Below, in pieces: positions 3,808 through 45,834 of a DNA stretch of 64,000 nucleotides. Source of the DNA: Cytophagales bacterium. Its GTDB lineage: Bacteria > Bacteroidota > Bacteroidia > Cytophagales > Cyclobacteriaceae. Positions within the stretch are counted from its first letter, which is position 1; the number at the start of each line of letters is the position of its first letter. The stretch is from the NCBI GenBank assembly GCA_038205685.1, contig JBBRBQ010000002.1, positions 108,548 through 172,547 of the forward strand, written 5' to 3'. Made by a program: the position numbers and the translations under genes. Below the pieces are notes generated by a model. That model did no database searches, was not told the DNA's origin, and saw only the letters and a list, made by a program, of their open reading frames with translations.

Positions 3808-3851
3808 GAGTTATAAGTTTATAGTACGCATTGTCAATTCATCTCTTATAA

Positions 3852-3987
3852 TTGATAATTAATTGGCGGCATCCCTCGTTCCTCGGGTCGGGCTATTCGT
3901 TGCAAGTCCGTCCCCGCACACATCCGGCACACTTCGGGCTTTCCACTGCTATCCCTTGCCGAAGCACTTCGCCAAGTAATTTATCAA
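3852..3987. repeat. GC-rich REP/MITE-like repeat, copy 1
   Basis: Arms cgggctattcgttgcaagtccg and cttcgggctttccactgctatccct are shared with 26703-26806; imperfect flanking inverted repeat ttgataattaattggcg / cgccaagtaatttatcaa. Confidence 0.75.
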
Positions 3988-3991
3988 CATC

Positions 3992-3999
3992 CAAAGTTA
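3992..3999 (-). promoter_or_regulatory. Bacteroidota -7 promoter element for the lipoprotein-cmk-DUF502 run
   Basis: Reverse complement taactttg matches TAnnTTTG. Confidence 0.55.
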
Positions 4000-4011
4000 C
4001 TATTTTAGCCT

Positions 4012-4019
4012 TAACTTTG
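4012..4019 (+). promoter_or_regulatory. Bacteroidota -7 promoter element
   Basis: taactttg, about 40 nt upstream of the ORF at 4062. Confidence 0.6.
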
Positions 4020-4061
4020 AATTAATTCAAAATTCAACTTTAAACTAAACGCTTAAAATAT

Positions 4062-4325
4062 ATGGAACCAACTGAAGAAGGCACAGCCGAAAAATTCTTT
4101 AAAGACTTTGGTAAAAAAGTAGATTCTTTTTTGGTAGAAGCCAAAGAAGCTGGCACGCGAGTAGAAGCCGACTTGAAAAAGAAATATGAAGAGCTAAAAG
4201 TCTCTGCTGAAAAACTCAAGAACGAAGCCGAAAACAAAGAACGCTGGAAAGAAGTAGAAGCCAGTTTGAAAAAGGCGGGAGAAGAATTGGAGAAGGCAGT
4301 GAAGACTGCATTTAAGAAACAATGA
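4062..4325 (+). CDS. Small charged helical hypothetical protein
   Basis: 87-aa E/K/A-rich amphipathic sequence with a promoter motif upstream. Confidence 0.75.
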   Translation: MEPTEEGTAEKFFKDFGKKVDSFLVEAKEAGTRVEADLKKKYEELKVSAEKLKNEAENKERWKEVEASLKKAGEELEKAVKTAFKKQ

Positions 4326-4347
4326 TTGCTTATCAGACAGTGTTCAA

Positions 4348-5250
4348 TTAGTCTGATTCTTTCAATTGCCTTGTTAATTTCATTCTAATCAAAGGGTAAC
4401 TCAATACAGCACCCAGTATAACCAACGTGCCAATATAGAAATTTAGGTTCATCACTTCTTGTTGTCCAAAAATCAAGAGTGCTAAAATAATTCCATAAAC
4501 CGGTTCAAGGTTTAGCGTAAGTTGAATAAAGAAAACGGATATGCGCCTTGATAAATCAATACTCACCGTGTAGGCGTACACTGAGCAAGCAAAGGCCATG
4601 AGTGAAATATAAAACCAATCGGATAAAGAAGGAGCTTGTTGAAAAGGTGTTTCTCCGCCAAAGGTTGTGAACAAAGGAAAAAACAAAAGCACACCAAGGC
4701 TTGCACCCAACATTTCATAAAAGGTAATAGTGTATTCATGCACTCGGCTCACCAATTTTGAATTGATAACACTGAATAGAGCAGCTGTAAATCCTGAAAG
4801 TATAGCAAGCAACAAACCAAGTTTATATTGAAAGTTGAAACTGAAAATAATTACAAGCCCACTAATTACAACAAGGCCTAACCCTACCTCAACAACGCTA
4901 ATTTTTTTCCGCTTGGCAATTGGTTCAATCAGTGCTGCCCAAAGGGAACAGGTGGCAAAACCAACAAGGCTAGTAGATGGGTTTGAAATGCGGCCTGCAC
5001 CAAAGAAGCTAAGCCAATGAAGGGCAACAATAAATCCTGTAATGAGCACTTTGCCCAAATCGAGTGTGGAGATTTTTAATGAGGTTTTTGAAAAAATTAT
5101 TAACACCCCAATACCTAAGAATGCCAGTACACATCGGTAGAAAACCATTTCAACTGATGAGATTAAAACTAGTTTGCCCAACACGGCTGTGAAGCCCCAC
5201 AAAAAAACAATGAAGTGGAGCTTTAAATAATCACGATTGCTCGGCATCAA
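4348..5250 (-). CDS. DMT/EamA family transporter
   Basis: About 10 TM helices in two repeats; LHFIVFLWGFTAVLGK and NLEPVYGI motifs. Confidence 0.9.
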   Translation of the reverse strand: MMPSNRDYLKLHFIVFLWGFTAVLGKLVLISSVEMVFYRCVLAFLGIGVLIIFSKTSLKISTLDLGKVLITGFIVALHWLSFFGAGRISNPSTSLVGFATCSLWAALIEPIAKRKKISVVEVGLGLVVISGLVIIFSFNFQYKLGLLLAILSGFTAALFSVINSKLVSRVHEYTITFYEMLGASLGVLLFFPLFTTFGGETPFQQAPSLSDWFYISLMAFACSVYAYTVSIDLSRRISVFFIQLTLNLEPVYGIILALLIFGQQEVMNLNFYIGTLVILGAVLSYPLIRMKLTRQLKESD

Positions 5251-6347
5251 CGCGGCACATATTTATACATGAATGCAGCAATGGCAGTAAAGACAATATT
5301 GGGTATCCAGGCCGCCAATACAGGAGAAAGTGAACCTGTTTCAGCAAACGTACGCGACATCATAAAGAATAAAATAAAAACGAAACTTAACATAAAGCCC
5401 AACGCAATTTGAAAGCCCGTGCCGCCTCTACTTTTGCGCGATGACACTATTACTCCCATAAACACTAACACAAATATTGTGAAGGGTGCAGAGTATCGTA
5501 TTTGTTTCTCTACTTCATATTGCTCCACACCTGTTGAGCCACGAAATTTTAATTTCGCAATGTGTTGATCTAATTCAGGAATGGTCATGCCATCGTATTG
5601 GCGATTGTCGTTTTCAAAATCCTTCGGTGAAAGCGCCAGCGTGGTATCCATCGTTTCACCTTCGCGCGCCAAATGTATTTTCTCCGCCTTACTTGTTACA
5701 CGAAAAATACTGTCTATCTTTTTTATCTTCCAATATTTTAAAATCCACTTGTGTTTTGCTGAGTCCCACGCAATGTTATCAGCAGTAAGCTTTTCAATAA
5801 GCTTGTTATCATTAAACCGCTCCAAAGTAAATTGATAGCCTGTGTTAGATTGGTTGTTATAATTCTGTAGATACAAGTACACATTGGGTTCTATTTGCAT
5901 GTGCACATTTCGCTTGTCGAAATAATAAACATTGTCGAAGTACTTGGCTTGAAATGCCAAGCGAGAAAGGTTTGATTGTGGTATCACCCAGCCATTCAGA
6001 AAAAAACTTAGCACGCCAATTACAGCCGAGGCCAGAAAGTACGGAAACAGAAATCTGCGAAAGCTTACACCACTGCTCAGTATGGCAATTATCTCAGTGC
6101 GCCCTGCCATTTGCGAAGTAACAAACACAACGGAAATGAACACGGTAATGGGAGTTAACAACCCCGCGATCCATGGAACAAAGTCTTGATAGTAGCCCAT
6201 GATGGTAAGTGTATCTAAATTATTTTTAGAAAACTTATCTACCTTTTCGGTGATGTCGATGGCCACAATAACAGCCGACAGCATTACTACCACAAAGAAA
6301 AAAGTGGAAAGTATTTTTTTGATAATGTATTTGTCGATGATCTTCAT
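5247..6347 (-). CDS. LptF/LptG family LPS export permease
   Basis: MKIIDKYI start, EIIAILSSGVS, WIPN motifs; start trimmed from 6407 because the extension is repeat-derived. Confidence 0.9.
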   Translation of the reverse strand: MKIIDKYIIKKILSTFFFVVVMLSAVIVAIDITEKVDKFSKNNLDTLTIMGYYQDFVPWIAGLLTPITVFISVVFVTSQMAGRTEIIAILSSGVSFRRFLFPYFLASAVIGVLSFFLNGWVIPQSNLSRLAFQAKYFDNVYYFDKRNVHMQIEPNVYLYLQNYNNQSNTGYQFTLERFNDNKLIEKLTADNIAWDSAKHKWILKYWKIKKIDSIFRVTSKAEKIHLAREGETMDTTLALSPKDFENDNRQYDGMTIPELDQHIAKLKFRGSTGVEQYEVEKQIRYSAPFTIFVLVFMGVIVSSRKSRGGTGFQIALGFMLSFVFILFFMMSRTFAETGSLSPVLAAWIPNIVFTAIAAFMYKYVPR

Positions 6348-6350
6348 TGG

Positions 6351-6432
6351 AGTAGTTAGTTGTTGGTTGGTAGTTGTTGGTTGGTAGTTGTTGGTAGTCA
6401 CTAGCAACTAGCAACTAAAATCTAACAACTAG
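6351..6432. repeat. Short-period (7/14-nt) intergenic repeat hairpin
   Basis: (tagttgttggttgg)x2 plus a partial unit, followed by complementary ctagcaa/ctaacaa modules. Confidence 0.7.
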
Positions 6433-6436
6433 TTTT

Positions 6437-7567
6437 TTAAAGCCGTTGCATTACCATTTTCACCATTTTATTTTTCCATTCCACGAAAGTGCCCTCTATT
6501 ATTTTCTCTCGCGCTTGCCTTACCAACCATAAATAGAAAGTAAGATTGTGAATAGAAGCAATTTGCGCGCCTAAAATTTCTTTGTTGATAATTAAGTGGC
6601 GAAGATACGCCTTCGAATGAAACCCACTTGCATAGCCACCGAGCATTTCGTCTATGGCTGAAAGGTCATCTTTCCATTTTTCGTTGCGTATATTAATGAT
6701 GCCTTGTGTGGTAAACAACATGCCATTGCGTGCATTGCGCGTGGGCATTACACAATCAAACATATCAATACCTAATGCAATGCACTCCAAAATATTTTCA
6801 GGTGTGCCAACACCCATAAGGTAGCGTGGCTTATCGGCAGGAAGAATGTTGCAGACTAGGTCCGTCATCTCATACATAAGCTCATGCGGTTCGCCAACAG
6901 AAAGGCCACCAATGGCATTGCCTTCCTGCTCTTGCGAGGCGATAAACTCTGCCGACTGTTGACGCAGATCTTTGAACGTGCTTCCTTGCACAATCGGAAA
7001 AAGCGTTTGATTATAATTGTATTTAGGCTGAGTCTCATTAACACGAGCCACACAGCGCTTGAGCCAATCATGAGTAAGGTGCATTGACTTTCTAGCATAC
7101 TCATATTCGCAAGGATAGGGTGTACACTCATCAAAGGCCATGATAATATCCGCACCAATAGATCGCTCAATATCCATTACCAATTCGGGGCTAAAAAAAT
7201 GCTTCGAGCCATCTATGTGCGATTTGAATGTAACGCCCTCATGGGTAATCTTTCTGTTCGCGGCAAGCGAGTACACTTGGTAGCCGCCACTATCGGTAAG
7301 CAGTGGGCGGCTCCAACCATTGAACTTATGTAGGCCACCCGCTTTTTCAAGTAGCTCTATGCCTGGCCTAAGATAAAGATGGTAAGTATTGCCCAATATT
7401 ATTTTGGCATCAATATCGGTTTCAAGTTCGCGCTGATGCACCGCCTTAACCGAGCCAGCGGTGCCCACAGGCATAAATATTGGCGTGGGTATTTCGCCAT
7501 GATCGGTGGTGAGTATACCAGCTCGTGCTTTAGAATGCGGATCTTTGGCCGTAAGGTTAAACTTCAT
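6437..7567 (-). CDS. tgt: tRNA-guanine transglycosylase
   Basis: TPIFMPVGT, LTDSGGYQ, PRYLMGVG, DMFDCVMPTRNARNG. Confidence 0.98.
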   Translation of the reverse strand: MKFNLTAKDPHSKARAGILTTDHGEIPTPIFMPVGTAGSVKAVHQRELETDIDAKIILGNTYHLYLRPGIELLEKAGGLHKFNGWSRPLLTDSGGYQVYSLAANRKITHEGVTFKSHIDGSKHFFSPELVMDIERSIGADIIMAFDECTPYPCEYEYARKSMHLTHDWLKRCVARVNETQPKYNYNQTLFPIVQGSTFKDLRQQSAEFIASQEQEGNAIGGLSVGEPHELMYEMTDLVCNILPADKPRYLMGVGTPENILECIALGIDMFDCVMPTRNARNGMLFTTQGIINIRNEKWKDDLSAIDEMLGGYASGFHSKAYLRHLIINKEILGAQIASIHNLTFYLWLVRQAREKIIEGTFVEWKNKMVKMVMQRL

Positions 7568-32049: not shown

Positions 32050-35000
32050 TCAATCCAACCCAATCATCATAAACGATCCCCAATAGATCGGCTCTGGATA
32101 CTCCACCCGAAGCTCCTTCTTAGCTTCAATAAAACTAGCTCTAAGGTTGCCTGTGGTAAGCCATTTTTTATAAAAATTAAGTATCAGTTTTTGAGTGGCC
32201 TCGTCATCCACTTTAAACATACTCATGATAAGTGTTTTTGCACCAGCTACCAAAAATGCACGCTGCAAACCATACACACCTTCACCATTGCTAACTTCTC
32301 CCAAACCTGTTTCGCAAGCACTTAGTACCACTAAATCGGTTCTATCTAGATTCAAGCTCATGGCCTCATAGGCAGTGAGAATCCCACTTTCTATATTGTA
32401 ATTATATTTCGTTTTATTTAGTAAATCACCCGCACCTTTCAACAATAATCCCGTCTTCAATAGTGGGTTATTTGCAAGCTCAGCCTCTGTTTCTGATAGC
32501 TCACTTATTTCCTTTTTGGCTTCTGTTTCGGGTGTAAACCCATGGGTGGCTATGTGAAATATTTTAGGACTTTCTTGTTCTTTTGCCCGCTCTTCAGTAG
32601 CTGAAGTCTCCACATACTGATTTGTCTTCCAGCCTTTTTGTTTAAGCAATTCTTCTAATTCATTGGCTTCTTTTTCAGTACCAGGTAAAGCCGCTATTTT
32701 CTCATCTGAGGAAGCGGTAAGGTAAAATTTAGGATTGCCAAAAATAGTAGCTTGATTAATGCTTGCAACACTTTTCGATTTTACTTTTCTAAGATAAAGA
32801 TCTTTGGTATTACTTACCATTACGATATTGGAATTATCAATTACGTACTTGCCATCAGGCGTGGGTATCGATTCAAGGATAACCAAATTATAAACACCAT
32901 CGGGCGATAGATAAATAGTAGAGTATTGACCAATGCCCTTCTGGATAGGTTCCCAGAAAGCATTGTAAGAATATTCATCTACCGTTTTGTTGACTATACT
33001 ATTTCTATAATATTTATAAAACCTGCTTTCGAGCCTATACCCTTCAGGTAATTTTATAGCCTTTGGCCTAGCGTTATCATTTTTAACATATAAGCATACA
33101 TACACAATAGAGTCAGTGAATTTATGGTCGAAGTGACGATAGCGCACCATTTCAATAGCCACATCATTTGGTGCAAGCGATTTTTGAACGTTTTCATATG
33201 TAATCTTTTTGTTCTCAAAACTTTGCCCAAACAACTCCGATTTTTCGCTCAATTCTTTTTCTAATTTTTCTACTTCATTACTTAAAACACTTGGGTCGAT
33301 ACTATTTGATGCCAATTGTTGAGGACTCATAGAAAGAGCATTGGTCAACAATTCTTTTTTGGCTAGCCATTCAGTGTATGTTGTCTTCAATGTTTCATCG
33401 GCACTGTTGAGGATCCGCTCTTTTATTTTAATGGATGAGCTTAACAGCAATGCTTTAGTAAGCAACTGATAATTATAAACTTTGGATGTTACATCTCTAA
33501 AATCCTCAATCTTGCTGAATGCAAGCGTATTGTAAAATTCGAAATCGCCTTTTATAGTATTCCAATACTTTGCTTTCTCTCTTTCGCTCAAGGTCGGGAA
33601 ATATTTTTTGATGAAGGCCTCATAATTGGTAAGTGCCTCTTCAATATTTCGTTTGGCTTGCTTGTAGTCTTTGCTCATGTAGTAAACACGAGCTTGCTTG
33701 GAGAGTATCTTCACATATTCTGGATGGGTTTTGCTAAAGAAGGTCTCATACAGATCGCGTGCTTTGAAATAAAATTCTTCAGCCCTTTTATAATTTTTGA
33801 TTTGATAATAGACATCAGCAGTAAGTGTATAGATAGCAGCCGTGTTGATATTATTTTTTGCGCCTGTCTTACTTTTCCAAATAGCCTCGGCTTGTGTGAG
33901 CGAACTGAATGCTTGAGTATAATTTTTATTAGCAATGTAAATAACAGCAACATTCTTGAGCACCTCGGCATACTGTGGATTGTTGGTTCCCAGTTTTTTA
34001 CCTATAATGTCGCGGGCCTCTAGCATTAGCTTTTCTACATCTTGATTATCGCCCTTATTAAATTTTATCAACGCCAGTTGAGCTATTGACTTTGCCACTT
34101 CAATATGGTTACGTCCAAATTGTTTTTCTTGACTGGCCAATGCTTTAAGGATGTTGCTTTGTGCACGATCATAATCACCAATAGTAAAATCAATTTCACT
34201 CAACAACTTTTGTGTGGGTGATGTTTTAGTGGATATCTCGCCATATACACTTACTGCCAATTGATTGGCTCGTATGGCAATTTTTTCTGCTTCCGTATAA
34301 TCACCTTTCAACAATTGAATCCTTCCCATGTTTACAAGAGGTTCAATTAAGCGCAATGTTGTAGTGCCATAAAGCTTTTCATATTCTTTTATCAGTTTTT
34401 TCAACAGGTCTTCAGTATCAGAGTACTCTCCAAGTTGAATGTATAAACTGGAAAGCTCTTTCGCAGTTGTTAATTCATCAATGCCAGCAAGCTTATCTGA
34501 TTTTATAATAATACGAGCAGAGCGGTCGAGCGCATCTTCTGCTTCGTCAAACATACCTTTAATACCAAAAAGCACCGCTTGTGTTTCTATGGCATTGATC
34601 AAAAATATTTTTCTGTCATAATCCGTTCTATATTCTTTTAATATTTTCAATGCTTGGTCAAGGTTTTCTTCAGCTTTTTCATACTGACCTAGTTTGATCT
34701 GTAGCTTTGCAATGTTGGTAAGCTCTATGCCATATTGAAAATCAGTATCACTGTATTTCGATCGGGCTACGTCCAATGCGTTGTCAAGCGTGGCAGTAGC
34801 TTCCTTGAACCTATCTGTAAGCTCAAAAAGAGTAGCCATTTGGTTGAGTATATCTAAATGATCCTTATGCCAAGCCCCGATTTCATTGGCCACAATGGGG
34901 TAGCTTTCTTCATAAATTTTTGCAGCGTCTGTTATCTTATTTGTGAAGTTGACATAAAAATTCGCTAAGCGAAGTTTGGACAAATGCACTTCGGGAGCAT

Positions 35001-36276
35001 CTTCACCATATAAATTTGTTTTGATGGTGATGACGCTTTTAATGTAACTCTCCGCATTCACATAATTCTTTTTTATAATGGCGAGAGTTGTAAGAAAATC
35101 AATTACTTCAGCTCGAGTAATATTATCCTTAGGCAGAGATGTAGTTTGACTGATCAAGACATTGGCATCATTTTCTAAATTTCGAGTTCTGTCTCTATCT
35201 AACTTCGAGTCAAATTCAACAGCTTTTAATCGCACCTTATAAATGCTCTCTTTGCCATAGTTGCCTGTAATCATTTTTTCATACTCTGCTTTCAGATTAA
35301 AATAAGGTGCACCACCCACTTCTATAAGTTGCGACAAGTAATCTTCATATAACCTAATTCCAAGCACATGAGAAGGTTGGTGACTGGCCTTAAGGAATCC
35401 TAATAATCTAATGTAGCTAAGATCGCGTGGGAGGTTTTCATTTCCATTTTCAACTAACACTTCCGCATTGTATACTTGGTTCTTTACATACGCTAAACTT
35501 GTTCTTCCTAAATTTTTATCAATCCAATTGGCGGCATAAGCAAATACGGAATCTGCACTTTTCAAATTTCCTTGGTGTCCAAAGGTTTCGGCTAATTGAG
35601 TTAATAATTTTGCGTATTCGTTGTTGCGTTGAATTAGCTCTTTGGGCGTTAGCTTTCGGCTAGTAAGGTTACCCTTATCATCCACAAAGCTCTCTTGTTT
35701 TACGGCCCGTTTTATATAATAAGGTTCATTCTGTTTTATCAACTCTATTGCTTCTCTAAAAAAGCCTTGCCCTGTTTGGCTTTCGGCACGAGCCAATTCC
35801 CATCGAGCCTTTACACCATCTTTAAAAAATTGACCACTTTCCAATGAGTTGTTGGCTGTAAACAAGTTTTCTTTAGCCAAACGATAACTTCCATTTTGGT
35901 TATAAATTTCACCCACTTGCAGTAACACTAGGCCGTGATTCAGCTTGTTATCTTTGTTAATAGTAGCGCTTGACTGAATGGCATTATCTAAGATTGATTC
36001 TAGCCCAATCACTATCCCTGCAGCGAGTTTGAGTTTAGCCTGGTAGAGATAGTAGGTTGGCGTGTATTGATTGTTGGCTCCCAATTTTTTTTCTGTGGCC
36101 ACCTTAAATTTATCCAAAGCCTTTAAGGCTTTGTTATAACTGCCCTGCTCGTAGCTAGCCTCAATAGTCTCCAGCGTCTTATCAAATTTGGCAAGTGCTT
36201 TATTTGGCTTTTGTGCTAGTAGCGATGGAGTGTAAATGAGAAGTGAGAGAGTTAAAAATGCTATAGAAAGTTTCAT
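32050..36276 (-). CDS. TPR + CHAT (caspase-like) protease, paralog 2
   Basis: 1408 aa; signal peptide (LLA-Q); long TPR array; FHIATHG and VLSACETG dyad. Confidence 0.92.
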   Translation of the reverse strand: MKLSIAFLTLSLLIYTPSLLAQKPNKALAKFDKTLETIEASYEQGSYNKALKALDKFKVATEKKLGANNQYTPTYYLYQAKLKLAAGIVIGLESILDNAIQSSATINKDNKLNHGLVLLQVGEIYNQNGSYRLAKENLFTANNSLESGQFFKDGVKARWELARAESQTGQGFFREAIELIKQNEPYYIKRAVKQESFVDDKGNLTSRKLTPKELIQRNNEYAKLLTQLAETFGHQGNLKSADSVFAYAANWIDKNLGRTSLAYVKNQVYNAEVLVENGNENLPRDLSYIRLLGFLKASHQPSHVLGIRLYEDYLSQLIEVGGAPYFNLKAEYEKMITGNYGKESIYKVRLKAVEFDSKLDRDRTRNLENDANVLISQTTSLPKDNITRAEVIDFLTTLAIIKKNYVNAESYIKSVITIKTNLYGEDAPEVHLSKLRLANFYVNFTNKITDAAKIYEESYPIVANEIGAWHKDHLDILNQMATLFELTDRFKEATATLDNALDVARSKYSDTDFQYGIELTNIAKLQIKLGQYEKAEENLDQALKILKEYRTDYDRKIFLINAIETQAVLFGIKGMFDEAEDALDRSARIIIKSDKLAGIDELTTAKELSSLYIQLGEYSDTEDLLKKLIKEYEKLYGTTTLRLIEPLVNMGRIQLLKGDYTEAEKIAIRANQLAVSVYGEISTKTSPTQKLLSEIDFTIGDYDRAQSNILKALASQEKQFGRNHIEVAKSIAQLALIKFNKGDNQDVEKLMLEARDIIGKKLGTNNPQYAEVLKNVAVIYIANKNYTQAFSSLTQAEAIWKSKTGAKNNINTAAIYTLTADVYYQIKNYKRAEEFYFKARDLYETFFSKTHPEYVKILSKQARVYYMSKDYKQAKRNIEEALTNYEAFIKKYFPTLSEREKAKYWNTIKGDFEFYNTLAFSKIEDFRDVTSKVYNYQLLTKALLLSSSIKIKERILNSADETLKTTYTEWLAKKELLTNALSMSPQQLASNSIDPSVLSNEVEKLEKELSEKSELFGQSFENKKITYENVQKSLAPNDVAIEMVRYRHFDHKFTDSIVYVCLYVKNDNARPKAIKLPEGYRLESRFYKYYRNSIVNKTVDEYSYNAFWEPIQKGIGQYSTIYLSPDGVYNLVILESIPTPDGKYVIDNSNIVMVSNTKDLYLRKVKSKSVASINQATIFGNPKFYLTASSDEKIAALPGTEKEANELEELLKQKGWKTNQYVETSATEERAKEQESPKIFHIATHGFTPETEAKKEISELSETEAELANNPLLKTGLLLKGAGDLLNKTKYNYNIESGILTAYEAMSLNLDRTDLVVLSACETGLGEVSNGEGVYGLQRAFLVAGAKTLIMSMFKVDDEATQKLILNFYKKWLTTGNLRASFIEAKKELRVEYPEPIYWGSFMMIGLD

Positions 36277-36410
36277 TTTGACTGGATTTTATCTACTAAA
36301 ATTTCTTTCAGGTTGTACTAATCTTCTCGGTTATGAAGAAGCTTAGAAATTACAGATGTTAAAGTTACTAAGAAAAAAAGACTTACAACTTTACTTATCG
36401 TGGAATGGTA

Positions 36411-39400
36411 TTAGCCTTCGGTGGAGTGCCTATCCATAAGCTTTTGTAGGATTGATTTTGCTGCTTCTGTTATTGGCGTGCCTGGTCCGAAAATTCCAAC
36501 AACGCCTTGAGAAGCTAGATATTCATAGTCCTTTTCAGGGATTACACCACCAACCACAACCATAATGTCGGGTCTACCAATTTTCTTGAGTGAATTTATA
36601 AGGGAAGGTATCAACGTTTTGTGTGCGCCTGCTAAACTTGAAGCCCCAATCACATGCACATCATTTTCGGCAGCTTGCATCGCCACTTCTTCTGGTGTTT
36701 GGAATAGAGGCCCGATATCAACATCAAAACCAAGATCAGCAAAGCTCGTGGCAATTACCTTCGCCCCACGGTCGTGTCCATCTTGGCCCATCTTAGCAAC
36801 AAGAATGCGCGGCCTTCGTCCATCCAATTTAGCAAACTGATCGGATAGTAGTTGTGCTTCGGTAAAATCTTTTCTATTTTTCATCTCGCCTAAATATACA
36901 CCTGAAATAGATTTGATGATTGCTTTATAGCGACCAAAAACTTTTTCCATTGCCATGGATATTTCGCCCAGCGTGGCTCGGTTGCGAGCAGCCTCTATTG
37001 ATAGCGTTAATAGATTTCCGTTTCCGGTTTCCGCGCAAGCGGTAATCGCATTTAGAGATGCTTCAACATCACTGTTATTTCTTTCAGACTTTAATAAATC
37101 TAATCGTGCGATCTGTTCATTTCTCACAGAAGTATTATCAACTTCCAATGTGTCAAAGTCGGGCTTCTCATCAGTTTGATATTTATTCATCCCAACAATG
37201 GTTTCTTTGCCAGCCTCAATCCTAGCTTGCTTTAGTGCCGATGCTTCTTCAATGCGCATTTTAGGTAAACCACTTTCAATTGCCTTTGTCATCCCGCCAA
37301 GGGCTTCTACTTCTTCTATTAATTTCCATGCTTGCTCAATCAATTCTTTTGTCAATTTTTCGACATAAAAAGATCCACCCAACGGATCGACCACATCAGT
37401 CACACCTGTTTCATTTTGCAGATACAGTTGTGTGTTGCGAGCAATGCGTGCTGAGAAATCGGTAGGCAATGCAATGGCTTCGTCAAGCGAATTGGTATGG
37501 AGTGATTGTGTTCCACCAAGCACTGCAGCTAGTGCCTCGATACACGTGCGCGTAACGTTGTTGTATGGATCTTGCTCCGTTAAACTCCAGCCCGAAGTTT
37601 GGCAATGCGTTCGTAACGCCATTGACTTAGAGTTAGTAGGATTAAACTCTTTTACAATCTTCGCCCACAGGAATCTTCCCGCTCTCATCTTGGCAATCTC
37701 TGTAAAGAAATTCATACCAATGCCCCAAAAGAACGATAGGCGTGGGGCAAAATCATCGATGGCAATGCCCGCTTTCAAGCCTGCTCGTATGTACTCTAAT
37801 CCATCTGCCAGCGTGTAGGCTAACTCAATGTGTGCAGGCGCACCAGCCTCATGCATGTGGTAGCCACTAATGCTGATGCTGTTGAACTTGGGCATGTACT
37901 TGGAACAGTAATCAAATATATCAGCCACAATGTGCATAGAAGGCGCAGGCGGATAGATGTATGTATTTCGCACCATAAACTCTTTCAAAATATCGTTTTG
38001 AATAGTGCCAATTAATTGATCTGGTCTAACTCCTTGTTCCTCCGCAGCCACAATATAAAAAGCAAGTATTGGAAGCACCGCACCATTCATTGTCATGGAT
38101 ACACTCATTTTATCGAGGGGTATTTGATCGAATAGAATTTTCATATCCAATACCGAATCGATGGCAACACCTGCTTTGCCAACATCGCCTGTTACTCGCG
38201 GATGATCGGAATCATAGCCACGATGTGTAGCCAAATCAAATGCAACGGATAAACCTTTTTGCCCAGCGGCTAAATTTTTTCTATAAAACTCATTTGAATC
38301 TTTAGCTGTTGAAAATCCCGCATATTGCCGGATCGTCCATGGGCGGATGGCATACATAGTGGCATACGGCCCACGTGTATATGGAGGCAAGCCTGCCGCA
38401 CCAATTGCTTTTGAACTCTGTTTTACTTGGGTTGCAAAATGATTGTAAGCTATTTTGGAGAAGTTGGGTTTATTTGTTTTAACAGTAAACTCTTCCCATG
38501 CATCTTTACACAATTGTTCAATCAAATTATCCAAATAGTAAGAACCCGCAGTAGGATCAGCTTCCCTTGATAGCATTGCTTCTTCACGCAAAATGGACGA
38601 TACATTGCGAGCCACTCTTGCCTGCATTGAATTGGCCGAATCATGAGGAAGAATGGTCATACTATCGCAACCCCCTAACACTGCTATCAAACCTGAGTAG
38701 GTATTGCTAAGCATCGCGCTATGCGGCTCATAAGCTGTATCTTTTTGTGCTATTGTAGCTCCATTGATCCTACCTGCACAATTAGGAACATCATAAGCGT
38801 GAGCGAGATTGCTCCATAACAATCGCAAGGCTTTTAACTTGGCAATCTCAACAAAAATAGTTGAGCCAATCGGAACTTGAAAGGCAATTGAATTTAATCC
38901 AACGGAAGTTTCTTTGATCTGATCAAATAAGCCTACTGATCGAACAAGCAAATTTGCTATTTCAGCTTGCGCTGATTCTTGTTTGGTACAAATCAAACCC
39001 AGTGGACGAAAATTTTTCCAAGCCAGAAATTGATTTGCTAATTCATTTGGATTGGCAATAGCATCTTTCCAAAATAATTCTCCTACAATTTTTTCTGAAT
39101 CATATTTTTTCTGTTGGAGATATTTTTGAAAGCTATCAACCGTATTTACTTGTTCACTGCTTAAAACAAAAGAAACTGAACAATACTCTAATTCCATCGA
39201 ATCAAGCAAAAGCGAAACATCGCAATTCTCGACCAACTCAAAAATAATTCCATCAGCACCTGATTGTAGATGTTGAAGTGCCAGAGAGTTGGCTTGTTTG
39301 GTATCACTCACTGCTACCAATGGAGTATTAAGCCACTTTCTATTGCCTAAGTATGGATCATTGGAAGAAGTAATTGAAGGAAAAATTTGCTGTCGATCGC

Positions 39401-39554
39401 TTTCATCGTAATAAGGTTTGATCACTAATCCTGCGATTTTTTTGGTAAGCGTTTCAATTGAATTTTTTCCACCCAATTCAATGGTAGCAGCCCTTAGCCA
39501 GTCTTCTTTATTGGTTATAGGGAATTCAAAATCAGGAGAAGCTAGATCACTCAT
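36411..39554 (-). CDS. scpA: Methylmalonyl-CoA mutase: degenerate small-subunit-like N-terminus fused to catalytic large subunit
   Basis: C-terminal ~660 aa contain [33 protein letters not shown] and B12 motif DGHDRG; N-terminal ~355 aa show MutA-like [31 protein letters not shown]. Confidence 0.9.
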
Positions 39555-39753
39555 TACGTGGTTCAGAATGTTTTTTCAAGTTTATATTAAGTTCTCAGTA
39601 AAGCAATTTTTTTGTTGAAAACAAGTCGTAACACAAGAAATAAATCTTAATTTTTGAGAGGCATTTTTTGTTTTTTTGTTGGTTATATTTTTTACACCTT
39701 TGTCTCCCCTCAAAAATAAAAAGTTAATTTTTCACCACAACCTGCAAGTATAA

Positions 39754-41187
39754 ATGGAAGTAAACGCTACAACTGTCTGGAACGATTGTCTTCATCTCAT
39801 TCGCCAAAGCGTTGACGAGCAAAACTTCAATACCTGGTTTAAGCCTATAATTCCTCTGCGTGCCGAAGGTGAGGCTTTAACTATTCAAGTGCCTTCACAA
39901 TTTTTTTACGAATGGTTGGAGGAGCATTATGTACCTGTGTTGAAAGAAGCCATTCATTCGGTACTGGGCGCATCTGCCCGATTAGAATATTCTGTGGTGG
40001 TTGATAGCGGCAATTTGCGTAACCCTCAATTATCGGTTAATTATCCCAATGGTGCTGGCATGAAACGCAGCAATGCGCAAGTACAAAATGGCAATGGCAA
40101 CATCGAAGAATATTCGCCTTTCAGTTTTAAGGCATTAAATCCTCAAACAGTAAATTCACGGCTCAATCCAAATTACTCATTCGAGAATTTTGTTGAGGGC
40201 GATTGCAACCGCTTGGCGCGATCTGCGGGTATTGCAGTAGCAAAAAAGCCTGGCGTTACCTCGTTTAATCCGTTGATGTTGTATGGAGGTGTTGGTGTTG
40301 GTAAAACACACTTGGTGCAAGCTATCGGTAATGAGATCAAGAAAAATCTTCCTTCTAAGATTGTTTTGTATGTAGATCAAAATGATTTTACAACCCAATT
40401 TTTGAATGCGCTTCAAAATCATAAGATGCAGGAGTTTCAAAATTTCTACCTGCAAGTAGATTTATTGATTTTAGATGATGTTCAGTTTTTAGCAGGTCGC
40501 GAAAAAACGCAAGAAATTTTCTTCCATATATTCAATCAACTTCACCAATCGGGCAAACAAGTTATTATGACCAGCGATTGCCCGCCTCGTGATTTGAAAG
40601 GCTTCCAAGAAAGGCTGCTTTCGCGATTCAAATGGGGGTTGACCGCTGACTTGCAAGAGCCTGATTTCGAAACTAAACTTGCCATCATTCATAATAAAAT
40701 GGAATCGGATGGAATTGATATTCAGTCCGAAGTTGCCGAGTACCTTGCCTTTAGTGTAGATACCAACCTTCGCGATATGGAAGGCGTGCTGAATTCATTG
40801 ATCTTCCACGCTACTTTACTCAAAAAGAAAATAGATCTTGACTTGGCCAAAGAAGTATTGCGTAACATCGTAAAAGAAATTCAAGCCGATGTAAGCGTTG
40901 ACTTTATCCAAAAGATGGTGGCCGAATATTTTAAAGTGGATATCGAATCTCTCAAGGCGAAAATCAAAAAGCGGGAGATAGTAATTCCACGCCAGTTGGC
41001 CATGTATTTCTGCAAACGATACACACAACTTACGCTGGCGCTAATCGGTGAAAACTTTGGTGGCCGCGATCACAGCACTGTAATCCATGCATTAGAATCT
41101 GTTGAAGACATGATGAAAACAGATGCCAACTTCAAAAACTCTGTTGATGAATTGAGCAAGCGGTTAAAGCTAAGAGTGGCTTCTTAA
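39754..41187 (+). CDS. dnaA: Chromosomal replication initiator DnaA
   Basis: FNTWFKPI, YSFENFVEG, GGVGVGKT, LDDVQFL, GGRDHSTVIHA. Confidence 0.98.
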   Translation: MEVNATTVWNDCLHLIRQSVDEQNFNTWFKPIIPLRAEGEALTIQVPSQFFYEWLEEHYVPVLKEAIHSVLGASARLEYSVVVDSGNLRNPQLSVNYPNGAGMKRSNAQVQNGNGNIEEYSPFSFKALNPQTVNSRLNPNYSFENFVEGDCNRLARSAGIAVAKKPGVTSFNPLMLYGGVGVGKTHLVQAIGNEIKKNLPSKIVLYVDQNDFTTQFLNALQNHKMQEFQNFYLQVDLLILDDVQFLAGREKTQEIFFHIFNQLHQSGKQVIMTSDCPPRDLKGFQERLLSRFKWGLTADLQEPDFETKLAIIHNKMESDGIDIQSEVAEYLAFSVDTNLRDMEGVLNSLIFHATLLKKKIDLDLAKEVLRNIVKEIQADVSVDFIQKMVAEYFKVDIESLKAKIKKREIVIPRQLAMYFCKRYTQLTLALIGENFGGRDHSTVIHALESVEDMMKTDANFKNSVDELSKRLKLRVAS

Positions 41188-41246: not shown

Positions 41247-42215
41247 TTAGTTGAACGCTTTTATACCAACCGATTTTACCTTTTTGACATTTTCATACGA
41301 ATCAATTTGCAAAGAATCCAAGCACAATTGGCGCAAAACAATATCTTTCTTTTGCGGAAAGATTTTATGATAGAGAATATAAAGCTGATCTCTTTCTTGG
41401 AATATAGTATGATGGCCTGGGCCAATGATCGTGCTATCGGCAGAGGTAGATAATATGGGGCTGTTGAGCCCTTCCTTCCACGGGCCGAAAGGACTGCTGC
41501 TTACAGAATATCGAATGTTATATGTAGCATCAATTGCCTTTCCATTCGAATACATTAAGTAGTAGTTACCTTTGTACTTGAGCATGTGAGGTGCTTCAAA
41601 ATAATTGGGAGGTGTGATGTCACGTGGTATTCCATTAAACGTAATCATATCCGGTTTTAATTTCACCGCAAGGCAATGACCATTTACCCAATTCAAGCCA
41701 GAGCCCCAATACAAATAGGGTTGGCCATCGGTATCAATAAAACAATCGGCATCAATGGCGTGAACTCCAGGATTTGCATTGGCTGTTATTAGAGGTGTAT
41801 TATCCACTTTAGCATTTCTCCACGGCCCCAGAGGGTGCTCACTTATACCAGCCCAAACTTCGCTACCCACCGATACATACATATAAAATTTTCCATTGGG
41901 TGCTTTTACAACACTGGGTGCCCAAACCATAGCGCCACCTGATGTTGAGCTTGTACACAGTTTCTTAGTTGGCCATGTTAAGTGATGGCGTTTAAATTTT
42001 TTAAAGTCGACCGTTTCAAAAACGGCAAGCTCATCTCCTCCCCATGGATCGATAGTAGCATAAATATAAAACGACTTGCCTTGTTTGATAATGGTGGGGT
42101 CAGCAAAGTATCCCTCCATAATTGGATTGCTAATACGCTCAGAAGTTACCTGGCTTTTGCAATGCGTGGAGAATACCAAAATCAAACAAAATACTGTAAG
42201 TGAGTTTTTGTTCAT
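41247..42215 (-). CDS. Glycoside hydrolase family 43
   Basis: Signal peptide; FADP, WAPSV, AIDAD and FEAP carry the three catalytic acids; GPGHH; start at 42215 overlaps the upstream stop (ATGA). Confidence 0.9.
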   Translation of the reverse strand: MNKNSLTVFCLILVFSTHCKSQVTSERISNPIMEGYFADPTIIKQGKSFYIYATIDPWGGDELAVFETVDFKKFKRHHLTWPTKKLCTSSTSGGAMVWAPSVVKAPNGKFYMYVSVGSEVWAGISEHPLGPWRNAKVDNTPLITANANPGVHAIDADCFIDTDGQPYLYWGSGLNWVNGHCLAVKLKPDMITFNGIPRDITPPNYFEAPHMLKYKGNYYLMYSNGKAIDATYNIRYSVSSSPFGPWKEGLNSPILSTSADSTIIGPGHHTIFQERDQLYILYHKIFPQKKDIVLRQLCLDSLQIDSYENVKKVKSVGIKAFN

Positions 42216-43390
42216 AGTAAGAATTTTATCACGGTTTGTATGCTCATTACACTTATTAATAAAACAACTAACCAGCCAATTATTTGCATCCACACAGGGT
42301 GCTTATACTCTTTCACAATTTTTCGATTATTAGCTGCCAATAAAATAATACCTAATGCAATGGGCAATGCGAAGCCATTTACTGCACCCGCCATCAACAA
42401 TAACTTTACAGGATTGCCAACCAAAATAAATATACCTGCTGAAAACAAAATGAAACCAGAGATAATATGCCGTTGATATTTCTGAAAGCTTGAATGGAAA
42501 CTTGTTATAAATGAAACGGAAGTATAGGCACAACCCACAACGGAAGTAATGGCTGCGCTCCATATTACCAGTCCAAAAAATTTATAACCAATTATTCCTG
42601 CAGCTGCCCGAAAGACAGATGCTGCAGGGTTACCTGTTGCCAAAACAACTCCGCTGGTTACAATACCTAGCGCACCTAAAAATAAAATAATGCGCATAAC
42701 ACCTGTAATCACAATTCCACTTACTGCACTTCTGTTGACTTGAGGCAAACTAGCGATGCCAGTAACACCGGCATCCAACAAGCGATGCGCACCTGCAAAG
42801 CTGATGTAACCGCCAACTGTACCACCTACAAGCGTTACTATTGTCAACGGATCAATTCGTTCTGGAATAAAACTTCGATGCGCTGCTTCCATAAGCGGAG
42901 GATTAGAACTTATCGCGATATAAAGCGTGAGCAAGATCATTACTAAGCCAAGCGATTTGGCAAACGTATCTATGGCATTACCAAATTCTTTCATCCAAAA
43001 AAGTAGAAGTGCAACTATGCAACTGATGGCTGCTCCTACCTCAGGTGATATTCCAAAAAGTACTTCAGTGCCAAGTCCGCAACCAGCGAGGTTGCCGATG
43101 TTAAAAGCCAATCCCCCCAATACAATAATAGCTGCTAAAAAATAACCTAAGCCTGGAACAATTTTGTTGGCGACATCCTGCGCACGCATATTGCTCACCG
43201 TTAAAATTCTCCAGATGTTTAATTGTGCACCAATGTCTAATAGAATGCTGATAACAATTACAAACCCAAAACTGGATAGAAGCTGTTGCGTGAATACCGT
43301 TGTCTGGATTAGAAACCCAGGGCCAATAGCAGAAGTCGCCATTAAAAAAGCTGCACCTAAAATAGCCGATTTGTTTTTAGTGGTTGTCAC
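42212..43390 (-). CDS. NRAMP-family YcsG-like transporter (probable 5-oxoproline uptake)
   Basis: GAAFLMATSAIGPGF, AFNIGN, GGTVGGY; follows pxpA. Confidence 0.88.
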   Translation of the reverse strand: MTTTKNKSAILGAAFLMATSAIGPGFLIQTTVFTQQLLSSFGFVIVISILLDIGAQLNIWRILTVSNMRAQDVANKIVPGLGYFLAAIIVLGGLAFNIGNLAGCGLGTEVLFGISPEVGAAISCIVALLLFWMKEFGNAIDTFAKSLGLVMILLTLYIAISSNPPLMEAAHRSFIPERIDPLTIVTLVGGTVGGYISFAGAHRLLDAGVTGIASLPQVNRSAVSGIVITGVMRIILFLGALGIVTSGVVLATGNPAASVFRAAAGIIGYKFFGLVIWSAAITSVVGCAYTSVSFITSFHSSFQKYQRHIISGFILFSAGIFILVGNPVKLLLMAGAVNGFALPIALGIILLAANNRKIVKEYKHPVWMQIIGWLVVLLISVMSIQTVIKFLL

Positions 43391-44142
43391 TATTTATCGA
43401 TTGACATTATGCTAACATTTTCACTTTTCAACTTAGCATAAATTGCTTTCGCGATTTGAACAGCATACTCACCATCACCATGCAAACAAATTGTATCCGC
43501 TTTGATCGGAATAATTTCTTTATTCAATGTTGTTACTGTTTTGTTCAAAATCATTTGCATCACTTGATTAAGCGATTCTTCTTCCGATGCTATCAAGGCA
43601 TTCTTTTGCGAACGTGGGGTTAGTGTGCCATCGAGTTGATAGGTTCGATCAGCAAAAACTTCGTTGGCTGTTTTTAGTCCAACTGCATTCGCTTGTGTTA
43701 TCATTTCACTGCCACTCAATCCATAATAAATCATGGAGGGATTGAAATCCTTTACAGCTTGCGCGATAGTAAGACTCATGGATTTATTGACAGCGGCCAT
43801 ATTGTACATAGCGCCATGCACTTTTACATGATGTAAAGCAGCGGACTGCTTTCTACAAGCTGAATCGATTACAAAAAGTTGGATCGTGATTAAATCATAC
43901 AATTCACTTTCGGAAAGTTGAATCGCAGTTCTGCCAAAGTTGAGTTTATCATCAAACCCAGGATGTGCACCAATTGCAACGTTATGCTTCAGGCAAAGTG
44001 AAATGGTTTCTTTGATCGTGGCTTCGCTACCAGCATGATACCCACACGCAATGTTGGCACTGCTTATCCATGGCATAATGGCTGCATCATTGCCAATGCC
44101 TTCGCCCATATCACAATTCAAATCAACGCTTATACTTTTCAC
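43390..44142 (-). CDS. pxpA: 5-oxoprolinase subunit A (LamB/YcsF)
   Basis: DLNCDMGEG, SSANIACGYHAG, GAHPG, HVKVHGAMYN, EVFADR, DTICLHGD. Confidence 0.95.
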   Translation of the reverse strand: MKSISVDLNCDMGEGIGNDAAIMPWISSANIACGYHAGSEATIKETISLCLKHNVAIGAHPGFDDKLNFGRTAIQLSESELYDLITIQLFVIDSACRKQSAALHHVKVHGAMYNMAAVNKSMSLTIAQAVKDFNPSMIYYGLSGSEMITQANAVGLKTANEVFADRTYQLDGTLTPRSQKNALIASEEESLNQVMQMILNKTVTTLNKEIIPIKADTICLHGDGEYAVQIAKAIYAKLKSENVSIMSIDK

Positions 44143-45106
44143 TTACAAATTGATTGAGACGTAATTTACAAGAAGTTTGAATTTGTTGTAATTGTTGATG
44201 TTGGTTAATCAATCGGTCTTCAGCTGCTTGTAAGCTTATTAATCTAAACGATATGGACTCGTTCGATCTGCGTTGGGCAAGTTTTGGCAAATCCGATTGA
44301 GCAACTTGAAGAACCCTTGGGTACCCACCTGTGGTTTGATGATCAGCCATTAAACAAATCAGTTGACCAGATGGCAACAATTGAATTGTACCAAACTGAA
44401 CTGCTGTTGAAAGTAATTCTTCATTGATAGATTTCCTTAAAGACTCCGATTGAAAACGATAACCCATTCTATCGCTCAAGGTTGTGATAGTAAATGGATT
44501 GGTAATTAATTTTTCTTGCGATGATTTATTTAGCCAATCAAACTCACCGCCCTTAATACAATGTATTAGCGTTGGTTCCTTATAAAAAGAAGTTGAAACA
44601 CTCCACGGAAAAACAAGAAGTTCGGAAGCAATAAAATCTGTCTTCCGAAAAGAAAGCACATCGCCCTTCTTTAAAGCCCTGCCTTTCTCTCCACCAACTT
44701 TTGCTTTAAGATTAGTGCTTGCGCTACTCATCCAATGCCGAATTTCAATGCCGCCTTGTATTGCCATGTAGCAAAATGAACCCGAATTATTCTTTGCGAA
44801 TTTTAATTCTGATTCTCGCGGTATTGCAATGGGATGATTGATTTGTATTGGTTTCCCATTAACGGTTGCTCCAAAATCAGCACCGCTCAAGGCGATTAGA
44901 CATTCTTTGTTAAACACAAATGTTGCAGCAGGAAAACACATCTCTATGACTGCTTCATTGTGAACATTGCCAACTAAAGCATTTGCAAAATGCATAGCAG
45001 TTTTATCCATTGCTCCGCTTGGATTAATACCAAGATGTTGATGTCCATATCTTCCAACATCCTGAATGGTATCTAACAAGCCCGATCGAATAACTTCTAG
45101 GCTCAT
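44123..45106 (-). CDS. pxpC: 5-oxoprolinase subunit C
   Basis: TIQDVGRYG, GAMD, SDRMGYR, GTIQL, ADHQTTGGYP. Confidence 0.93.
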   Translation of the reverse strand: MSLEVIRSGLLDTIQDVGRYGHQHLGINPSGAMDKTAMHFANALVGNVHNEAVIEMCFPAATFVFNKECLIALSGADFGATVNGKPIQINHPIAIPRESELKFAKNNSGSFCYMAIQGGIEIRHWMSSASTNLKAKVGGEKGRALKKGDVLSFRKTDFIASELLVFPWSVSTSFYKEPTLIHCIKGGEFDWLNKSSQEKLITNPFTITTLSDRMGYRFQSESLRKSINEELLSTAVQFGTIQLLPSGQLICLMADHQTTGGYPRVLQVAQSDLPKLAQRRSNESISFRLISLQAAEDRLINQHQQLQQIQTSCKLRLNQFVSEKYKR

Positions 45107-45834
45107 AGATTAAAGACGTTAAATGAATTTTTATCAAAGCTCATAAATTCATCCATTGAAATCGACTTGAACTTAATCTGATCGCCCGGTTGCAACAGCA
45201 CAGGTGCTTTGCGATCAGCATCGAATAAGGTTAACGGGGTTTGGCCGATAATATTCCAACCACCTGGTGAATCAAGCGGATAGATACCCGTTTGTTCTCC
45301 GGCAATTCCAACGCTTCCCGCCTTTACAGTCGTTCGGGGTTTTTCCAGTCGAGGTGTTATCAATTTTTTATCAATAGTACCCATGTAGGCAAACCCCGGT
45401 AGAAAGCCAATCATAAACACAAGGTAAGTTGGAGTGGTGTGAAGCCAAATCAATTGTTCAATACTAATCTTCTTTTCTTTTGATAGCCTGACTAAATCAG
45501 GAGCAACATTTGGGTGATAACAAACAGGAATAGTTACCAATCGCGCAATACCCTTTTTATTCCAATCGCAAGAAGCAATTGCCTTTTCAATCTCCTGTTT
45601 AACAACTTCATAAGCTGATGAACAATGCTTCCTAAGTTCTATAGCATTATAAATAATTGTAACCGATGTGTAGGCAGGAATAATATCGATCCATTGAGTG
45701 GCTGAACTCTTTTTTAGATGATGGCAAAAAGCATGAACACGATCGTTGATTAAAGCATCAATTGAGTTGCCAAAGTTTATGCAAACTGCGGATTCGCTAA
45801 CTGACTGAATGGAATACTTAAGTGGATAATTCAT
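45103..45834 (-). CDS. pxpB: 5-oxoprolinase subunit B
   Basis: IIPAYTS, IPVCY, GFLPGFAY, GSVGIAGEQTGIYP..SPGGWNIIG. Confidence 0.95.
   Translation of the reverse strand: MNYPLKYSIQSVSESAVCINFGNSIDALINDRVHAFCHHLKKSSATQWIDIIPAYTSVTIIYNAIELRKHCSSAYEVVKQEIEKAIASCDWNKKGIARLVTIPVCYHPNVAPDLVRLSKEKKISIEQLIWLHTTPTYLVFMIGFLPGFAYMGTIDKKLITPRLEKPRTTVKAGSVGIAGEQTGIYPLDSPGGWNIIGQTPLTLFDADRKAPVLLQPGDQIKFKSISMDEFMSFDKNSFNVFNL

Follow-up and report, generated by a model that had tools for sequence, protein, structure and literature searches.

Can the catalytic and the inactive subunit of a heterodimeric methylmalonyl-CoA mutase (MCM) be one and the same polypeptide, and if so, how did they come to be joined? 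The question is raised by a gene on the complementary strand of a 64 000-nucleotide stretch of DNA (the window; positions 108,548 to 172,547 of contig JBBRBQ010000002.1, assembly GCA_038205685.1) from a Cytophagales bacterium of the family Cyclobacteriaceae. To our knowledge, the reason why heterodimeric MCM carries an inactive beta subunit (MutA) beside its catalytic alpha subunit (MutB) has never been clearly explained. We consider it probable that the gene encodes a single-chain MCM of the alpha-beta heterodimer type, in which a dead, barrel-only descendant of MutA (MutA') precedes a complete MutB, the two having been fused at a coupled gene boundary.

The gene is a single frame of 1047 amino acids (aa) with an ATG start and no internal stops, as given by the list of open reading frames and the translation (Table 1). 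An earlier note on this DNA, made from its letters alone, had described just such an uninterrupted frame, with about 355 aa of MutA-like sequence lacking the C-terminal domain, a linker of about 30 aa at about 38400-38490 and a catalytic part in which the RQYAGF Tyr, the MVRNTY Arg and DxHxxG were intact. All of these features were recovered: the barrel ends at residue 357, its best sequence match in the PDB is aligned only as far as residue 441 of 637, the linker falls where it had been placed, and the motifs are all present. The Pfam domain mapping that the note had proposed locates the mutase and B12-binding domains behind the linker. In an AlphaFold2 (AF2) model of the whole chain (85-sequence alignment), the mean predicted local distance difference test score (pLDDT) was 86.6 and the predicted template modelling score (pTM) 0.91, with pLDDT below 50 only at residues 1-8, 378-381 and 657-659.

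By every criterion that can be tested on sequence and model, the protein belongs to the MCM catalytic family. Against NF006944, the NCBIfam methylmalonyl-CoA mutase equivalog, the whole protein scores 1325.4 bits (cut-off 876) and the C-terminal half alone 1265.6; profile positions 48-719/721 align with aa 373-1044, which leaves ~50-60 residues at the start of a normal MutB without a match. Similarly, residues 64-722 of PDB chain 1req_A align with residues 387-1040 of the query, and the MCM alpha chains that give this half its best PDB matches (P. shermanii, human and M. tuberculosis) are aligned from about residue 64-81 onwards. Structural comparison of the C-terminal half with 1req_A and 2xiq using Foldseek gave target-normalized TM-scores (TMt) of 0.87-0.90, a root mean square deviation of about 2 Å and 64-67% identity. 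RQYAGF (409-414), MVRNTY (527-532), YH (565-566) and DGHDRG (925-930) are invariant across 85 homologs. The substrate residues of the MCM type, Y411, R529 and Y565-H566, are thus in place, at positions that agree with the 1req_A alignment. We take these to be Tyr89, Arg207 and Tyr243-His244 in P. shermanii numbering. The order of barrel and then B12 domain with DxHxxG, as required of an MCM catalytic subunit, is the order found. The enzyme is predicted to be an active adenosylcobalamin-dependent methylmalonyl-CoA mutase (EC 5.4.99.2).

The N-terminal part is a different kind of barrel. The first 375 aa match the MutA model TIGR00642 over profile positions 257-413/620 only (E 1e-30), and their best sequence match in the PDB is the MutA chain 1e1c_B, over residues 274-441/637 (E 5e-16). 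When the domain was modelled alone with AF2, it folded into 8 strand-helix repeats (pLDDT 93.4). The top Foldseek matches of this model are the MutA chains 1req_B, 7req_B and 6oxd_B (query-normalized TM-score, TMq, about 0.80; identity 20-21%), with alpha-chain barrels coming close behind in the ranking. A profile alignment of the N-domain family with the MutB barrel of the same protein (hhalign; probability 99.8%) puts Leu79 at the position of the catalytic Tyr411, drops the equivalents of Arg529 and Tyr565-His566 into gaps, and lacks a 24-residue segment of the substrate loop. Since both the catalytic residues and a cobalamin domain are absent, the N-domain is a dead mutase barrel. The C-terminal Rossmann-like (cobalamin-domain-like) domain of MutA was not found here either; the linker and MutB follow directly after the barrel. 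As a separate observation, R72/W74/N76, GADG, C125, H264 and GGC of the dead barrel (window about 38667-39341, complementary strand) are at least 90% conserved, are specific to the family and lie outside the mutase catalytic set.

Table 1. Parts of the fused mutase gene, with positions in the window
Feature	Position	Strand	Evidence
Whole fused gene, 1047 aa (P0001), MutA'-linker-MutB	36411..39554	-	List of open reading frames and translation; independent contig with 0 differences
Non-catalytic MutA-like (beta/alpha)8 barrel, aa 1-357, with its own N-terminal arm at aa ~16-50	38484..39554	-	TIGR00642, 1e1c_B, AF2, Foldseek
Linker, aa 358-387, predicted flexible	38394..38483	-	pLDDT 59-69, residues 378-381 below 50; junction alignment
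Relic of the former mutB start, Asn362 in place of Met1; corresponds to M-KPDFSKIxYNQF of split relatives	38433..38471	-	Protein and DNA alignment
Catalytic MutB substrate-binding TIM barrel, Pfam MM_CoA_mutase (PF01642), aa 382-874; Tyr411, Gln519, Arg529, Tyr565-His566	36933..38411	-	Pfam E 1.5e-260; Foldseek
Cobalamin-binding Rossmann domain, aa 916-1031	36462..36809	-	PF02310 E 7.8e-22; TIGR00640 204.8 bits
DxHxxG motif, D925-G-H927-D-R-G930, base-off/His-on cobalamin ligand motif	36765..36782	-	Sequence; invariant in 85-sequence alignment

To see how the halves were joined, the junction can be compared with relatives in which mutA' and mutB are still separate genes. There, MutB starts as M(K/R)PDFSKIxYNQF...W.SPEKIEIKP.Y..D...F.A-GLPPYLRGPY, with 52-55 aa ahead of the GLPPY motif, and in 20 of the 26 split loci examined the stop of mutA' and the start codon of mutB share the sequence ATGA (in the remainder the two lie within a few bases). 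Where the relatives read ATG AAA CCT GAC TTC TCT AAA, the window reads AAT AAA CCC AAC TTC TCC AAA. About the first 12 residues of the old MutB N-terminus are therefore retained in the linker, directly after the MutA' tail, which places the join at the natural gene boundary. Only in the clade to which the window belongs is there, in addition, an in-frame internal deletion of ~25-28 aa, by which the MutB arm has lost its W.SPE.I.IKP.Y hairpin. In other fused clades the hairpin is retained: the distance from DP.AGSY to GLPPY is there 58-82 aa (mostly 66-82), and ~82 aa would be expected if the MutA' tail of a split relative joined its own MutB arm. In P0005, a member of another fused clade, the MutB profile match runs from position 24/721, so nearly the whole N-terminus is kept.

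These comparisons change two points of the earlier note. It had the large subunit lacking its N-terminal arm; the arm is indeed shortened, by the ~25-28 aa just described, but it was not trimmed from the end, its first ~12 residues persisting in the linker. The note had also argued that reciprocal trimming of the two halves speaks against a simple lost stop codon, and this argument does not hold. The truncation of MutA predates the fusion, as about 33 split relatives have a barrel-only mutA' beside a full mutB; the two genes mostly overlap as ATGA, with the MutB start motif kept at the junction; and other fused clades keep nearly the entire MutB N-terminus. Because barrel-only mutA' exists as a separate gene in relatives, the loss of the MutA C-terminal domain is older than the fusion and not its consequence. 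Given the ATGA overlap and the retained MutB start, a one-base frame change or the loss of a stop would have been sufficient to fuse the frames. The simplest account would thus be a stop loss or one-base frame change at the gene boundary, with the internal deletion in the window's clade following or accompanying it.

To judge how widespread the arrangement is, we can draw on the survey of homologs that the earlier note had called for, a protein search whose best matches included about a hundred fusions with lengths of ~1005-1115 aa; the named ones are from Cytophagales (e.g. Cyclobacteriaceae, Ohtaekwangia). Using the N-domain (9-sequence alignment), 69 species-representative loci, all Cytophagales-like, were fetched and sorted by architecture; contig-end cases were misclassified at first and were corrected by hand. 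The frame is fused in 28 loci, while in about 33 a mutB frame of ~705-770 aa is immediately preceded by a short mutA' frame of its own (~360-410 aa), 2 have a full-length (~620-aa) mutA, and the remainder are cut by a contig end or ambiguous. The earlier note's question of whether relatives encode two full-length genes thus has a mixed answer: some relatives are split, but their small gene is already truncated. At one locus, from the metagenome-assembled genome (MAG) of a related Cyclobacteriaceae (L071, about 3812-7015), the fused frame stops after 512 aa and the MutB match goes on downstream; a frameshift, a sequencing error or decay into a pseudogene may account for this interruption.

On an unrooted tree built by maximum likelihood from the MutB part without the linker (62 rows, 655 columns), there are 8 changes between the fused and split states by parsimony, of which at least 4 are forced by strongly supported (starred) branches. 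A single origin of all fusions was tried and rejected: when every fused row was forced onto the same side of one branch, the log-likelihood fell by 245 units (approximately unbiased test, p-AU 4.5e-63). Since the start motif and the ATGA overlap recur in split clades that are far apart, whereas the linkers of the fused clades are divergent, we infer that the split state is ancestral and that fusion was repeated.

We also counted matches that covered the whole N-domain profile in a sample of 121 Bacteroidia genomes that were at least 90% complete (one unpublished genome in the sample, G128, was left out of the counts), with frame lengths that are stop-to-stop upper bounds. Frames of 1054 aa or longer (fused) were present in 9 genomes from five GTDB families, short stand-alone frames of 355-510 aa in about 23 genomes, and long frames of 550-640 aa in about 13. 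Many genomes of this sample have only barrel-only mutase frames of ~520-550 aa, which are large subunits of the split type. The three MutA-like length groups, together with these barrel-only mutase frames, indicate that MCM subunit organisation in Bacteroidia is far more varied than the textbook forms. When the N-domain profile was searched against 1.84 billion cluster representatives, the best 150 were mostly stand-alone proteins of ~340-390 aa, some of them labelled 'hypothetical protein'; this search is not a count of fusions, since fused proteins probably cluster with MutB at 50% identity through their conserved C-terminal half. A second class of fusion, of ~1165-1173 aa (P0098-P0120, e.g. 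P0112 and P0119), joins a well-preserved MutA barrel (TIGR00642 positions 2-470/620, about 600 bits) to a full MutB, and its named members are from Vicinamibacterales, Acidobacteriota. As judged by sequence, a MutA barrel-MutB fusion is thus also present in a second phylum.

In the reading that we favour, the C-terminal 660 aa, a complete MutB, would do the chemistry, and the N-terminal 357 aa would be a catalytically dead, barrel-only MutA descendant that presumably packs on the catalytic barrel as a structural partner, as MutA does in the heterodimer. The ancestral mutA' and mutB would have been translationally coupled through ATGA, where a stop loss or one-base frame change could fuse the frames, and the resulting tether would ensure a 1:1 stoichiometry and co-folding. 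In the heterodimer as seen in 1REQ, each chain wraps its N-terminal arm around the barrel of the other. A covalent tether may relax selection on the alpha arm, plausibly by making this inter-subunit clamp dispensable, and so lead to the ~25-28-aa deletion. The high pTM of the model is consistent with a fixed inter-domain arrangement. The earlier note had called the protein a covalently linked pseudo-heterodimer: the single chain, the dead MutA-like barrel followed by MutB, the pTM and an architecture common to conserved homologs all agree with that name, with the intramolecular packing itself being a prediction.

The N-domain is taken to work like MutA, and like MutA it is a mutase-type barrel without catalytic residues, yet it fails the tests by which a MutA is recognised: it scores 106 bits against TIGR00642 where the equivalog cut-off is 617, it has no C-terminal domain, and it lies in the same frame as MutB instead of being a separate polypeptide that pairs with it. 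Some points weigh against the favoured reading. The dead barrel keeps family-specific and nearly invariant residues (GADG 99-102, C125, H264 and GGC 294-296), and so may be more than a scaffold. As regards the history, the MutB tree comes from a 'quick' search and has some long branches, and the direction of change, fusion and not fission, is argued from the junction anatomy, the tree not being rooted.

The nearly invariant residues suggest another explanation, in which the N-terminal barrel has a function of its own (as a regulatory domain, or in binding a metal, a nucleotide, an acyl-CoA or a chaperone) that the fusion couples to the mutase. Together with R72/W74/N76 and R313-N317, those residues are at least 90% conserved in 84-85 homologs, in a domain that is only ~37% identical overall, and stand-alone short forms make up a large and varied family, as the representative clusters illustrate. 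However, the domain has neither the cobalamin domain nor the catalytic Tyr, Arg and Tyr-His; RIARN..ILREE and DP.AGSYY are common to MutA and MutB barrels, so may be structural; and canonical MutA is itself a non-catalytic partner (PMC10481361). We therefore regard an independent function of the barrel as unlikely.

Very much less likely still is that the catalytic half belongs to another acyl-CoA mutase (isobutyryl-CoA mutase, ICM; ethylmalonyl-CoA mutase; or 2-hydroxyisobutyryl-CoA mutase, HCM). The members of this family are homologous and often mislabelled, and weaker matches to IcmF and HCM were seen, but the score against the MCM equivalog is far over its cut-off, identity to the MCMs of P. 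shermanii, human and M. tuberculosis is 64-67% as against 41% to HCM, and a separate IcmF is encoded elsewhere in the genome. ICM-type enzymes carry Phe and Gln at the Tyr and Arg positions of MCM; the window's protein has both the Tyr (in RQYAGF) and the Arg (in MVRNTY) that mark MCM. An IcmF-like or chaperone fusion was likewise considered and rejected: Pfam finds no MeaB domain, and the IcmF model NF045497 gives 304 bits against a cut-off of 1500.

We also asked whether the fused frame is real. The source genome is a MAG from a sediment metagenome (4.15 Mb, 40 contigs, 99.6% complete), whose run is the only public one that contains the sequence. An independent Logan contig from the same sequencing run spans 36300-39700 unbroken, at a word depth of 26.6, and shows 0 differences; coming from the same sample as the source genome, it checks the assembly and not the biology. 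Stronger evidence is provided by other samples, from which P0002 (84% identical over its full length), P0003, P0004 and loci L015 and L016 have the same fusion with a short linker; these five form a clade with the window that has 100% support in the Shimodaira-Hasegawa-like approximate likelihood ratio test (SH-aLRT). An artefact of assembly or sequencing, in which a spurious one-base indel had merged what are really two ATGA-overlapped genes, was accordingly rejected as barely credible: the points in its favour are the metagenomic source and the many close relatives that are split, in which one indel at the 4-nt overlap would be enough to join the frames, but they are countered by the identical independent assembly, by a former start codon that reads AAT and not ATG, by the fusion in the five sequences from other samples and by an internal deletion that is in frame.

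The single-chain enzyme with its dead barrel can now be set beside the known systems. MutB of P. shermanii (PDB 1REQ family) and of M. tuberculosis (6OXC/6OXD) has the same barrel and B12 domain with the same motifs and is 66-67% identical to the catalytic half, and MutA of these organisms is the inactive-chain barrel most like the N-domain in both sequence and fold. In contrast to the heterodimer, there is one polypeptide here and not two; the MutA part is without the whole C-terminal Rossmann-like domain and has about 80 aa fewer in the barrel region, and the MutB arm is short of the internal ~25-28 aa. The split mutA'/mutB pairs of related Cytophagales, such as Fulvivirga kasyanovii, F. imtechensis AK7 and Chryseosolibacter indicus (loci L049, L073 and L041), have the same truncated MutA' (~350-390 aa), the same MutB and the same gene order, but as two genes, mostly with the ATGA overlap, and their MutB has the full 52-55-aa N-terminal arm. 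The long-linker fusions of other Cytophagales, such as Chryseotalea sanaruensis (L057) and Roseivirga pacifica (L077), and the ~1170-aa fusions of Vicinamibacterales share the order and the lack of the MutA C-terminal domain; unlike the window's clade, from which they stand apart on the MutB tree, they keep W.SPE.I.IKP.Y. In homodimeric MCM (human MMUT, E. coli Sbm, Sinorhizobium BhbA), the catalytic core is the same (human MMUT is 64% identical) but the partner is a second active chain, and in heterotetrameric MCM it is the catalytic chain that is split, with barrel and B12 domain on separate chains. IcmF (PDB 4XC6) is also a large single-chain B12 acyl-CoA mutase, but its order is B12 domain, G-protein and barrel, and it has no dead barrel; that IcmF differs in domain order, and by a MeaB-like GTPase absent here, had been noted correctly before this analysis.

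A 2019 survey gives the forms of MCM as homodimer, heterodimer and heterotetramer only (PMC6759758), the inactive subunit is treated as having a substrate-like and a cobalamin-like domain (PMC10481361), and the mutase fusions that have been discussed are those with MeaB, IcmF/McmC (PMC4017328). A full-text literature search, with subscription journals mostly outside it, found neither a MutA-MutB fusion nor a barrel-only MutA described, and so no published characterisation of the kind that the earlier note had allowed for, although this is weak evidence of absence. What the present analysis adds is the split barrel-only ancestor, the anatomy of the ATGA junction, the arm deletion particular to one clade and the evidence that fusion recurred.

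The mutase gene looks monocistronic. Divergent from it, 200 bp upstream across the intergenic region 39555-39753, is dnaA (window 39754-41187, forward strand; DnaA_N, Bac_DnaA and Bac_DnaA_C). A scan of the window for DnaA boxes (TTATCCACA with 1 mismatch) found 15 where 18 were expected; as there was no enrichment, no origin was called. Directly downstream of the mutase on the same strand (32050-36276) is a gene for a protein of 1408 aa, in which Pfam finds many TPR repeats and, at the C-terminus, a caspase-like CHAT domain; the local GC content is 0.36-0.38, compared with 0.42-0.44 in the mutase gene. On the far side of dnaA are a GH43 glycosidase (41247-42293) and a run of genes on the complementary strand (42212-45834) for an Nramp-like transporter, a LamB/YcsF (PxpA-like) protein and a CT_A_B carboxyltransferase-type subunit, which by its annotation resembles a pxpABC-like cluster for 5-oxoprolinase together with a metal transporter.

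Elsewhere in the genome, a search with TIGR00642 and PF01642 found no second, separate MutA. The only other match was an IcmF-type fused mutase on contig 8 (about 127700-131100; loci L002, L004 and L006), a 1150-aa frame in which a MeaB domain precedes a mutase barrel. A stand-alone MeaB is encoded on contig 13, and the genome also encodes methylmalonyl-CoA epimerase and two acyl-CoA carboxyltransferases. The physiological role of the fused enzyme is thus most likely in the ordinary route from propionyl-CoA to succinyl-CoA, with the epimerase, the carboxyltransferases and the stand-alone MeaB.

If barrel-only beta subunits and their repeated fusion to alpha make this a naturally minimised, possibly monomeric MCM, a proposal for and against which we find the case evenly balanced, then the cobalamin-like domain of the beta subunit and part of the alpha N-terminal clamp would be dispensable, and the sole selected role of the beta subunit would be to present one barrel surface to the catalytic chain. 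The family would also offer a ready-made single-gene MCM of the heterodimer type for structural work and pathway engineering, convenient for expression. In annotation, the short stand-alone subunit is sometimes called 'hypothetical protein' and the fusion just 'methylmalonyl-CoA mutase'. The two states can be compared directly in cultured species, split in Fulvivirga and Chryseosolibacter and fused in Chryseotalea sanaruensis and Roseivirga pacifica. The chemistry is ordinary; the value of the lineage is as a natural experiment on the purpose of the inactive subunit, by both deletion and tethering, in which beta would have been cut down to its barrel and then joined to alpha at least 4 separate times, and the alpha arm was shortened in the window's clade.

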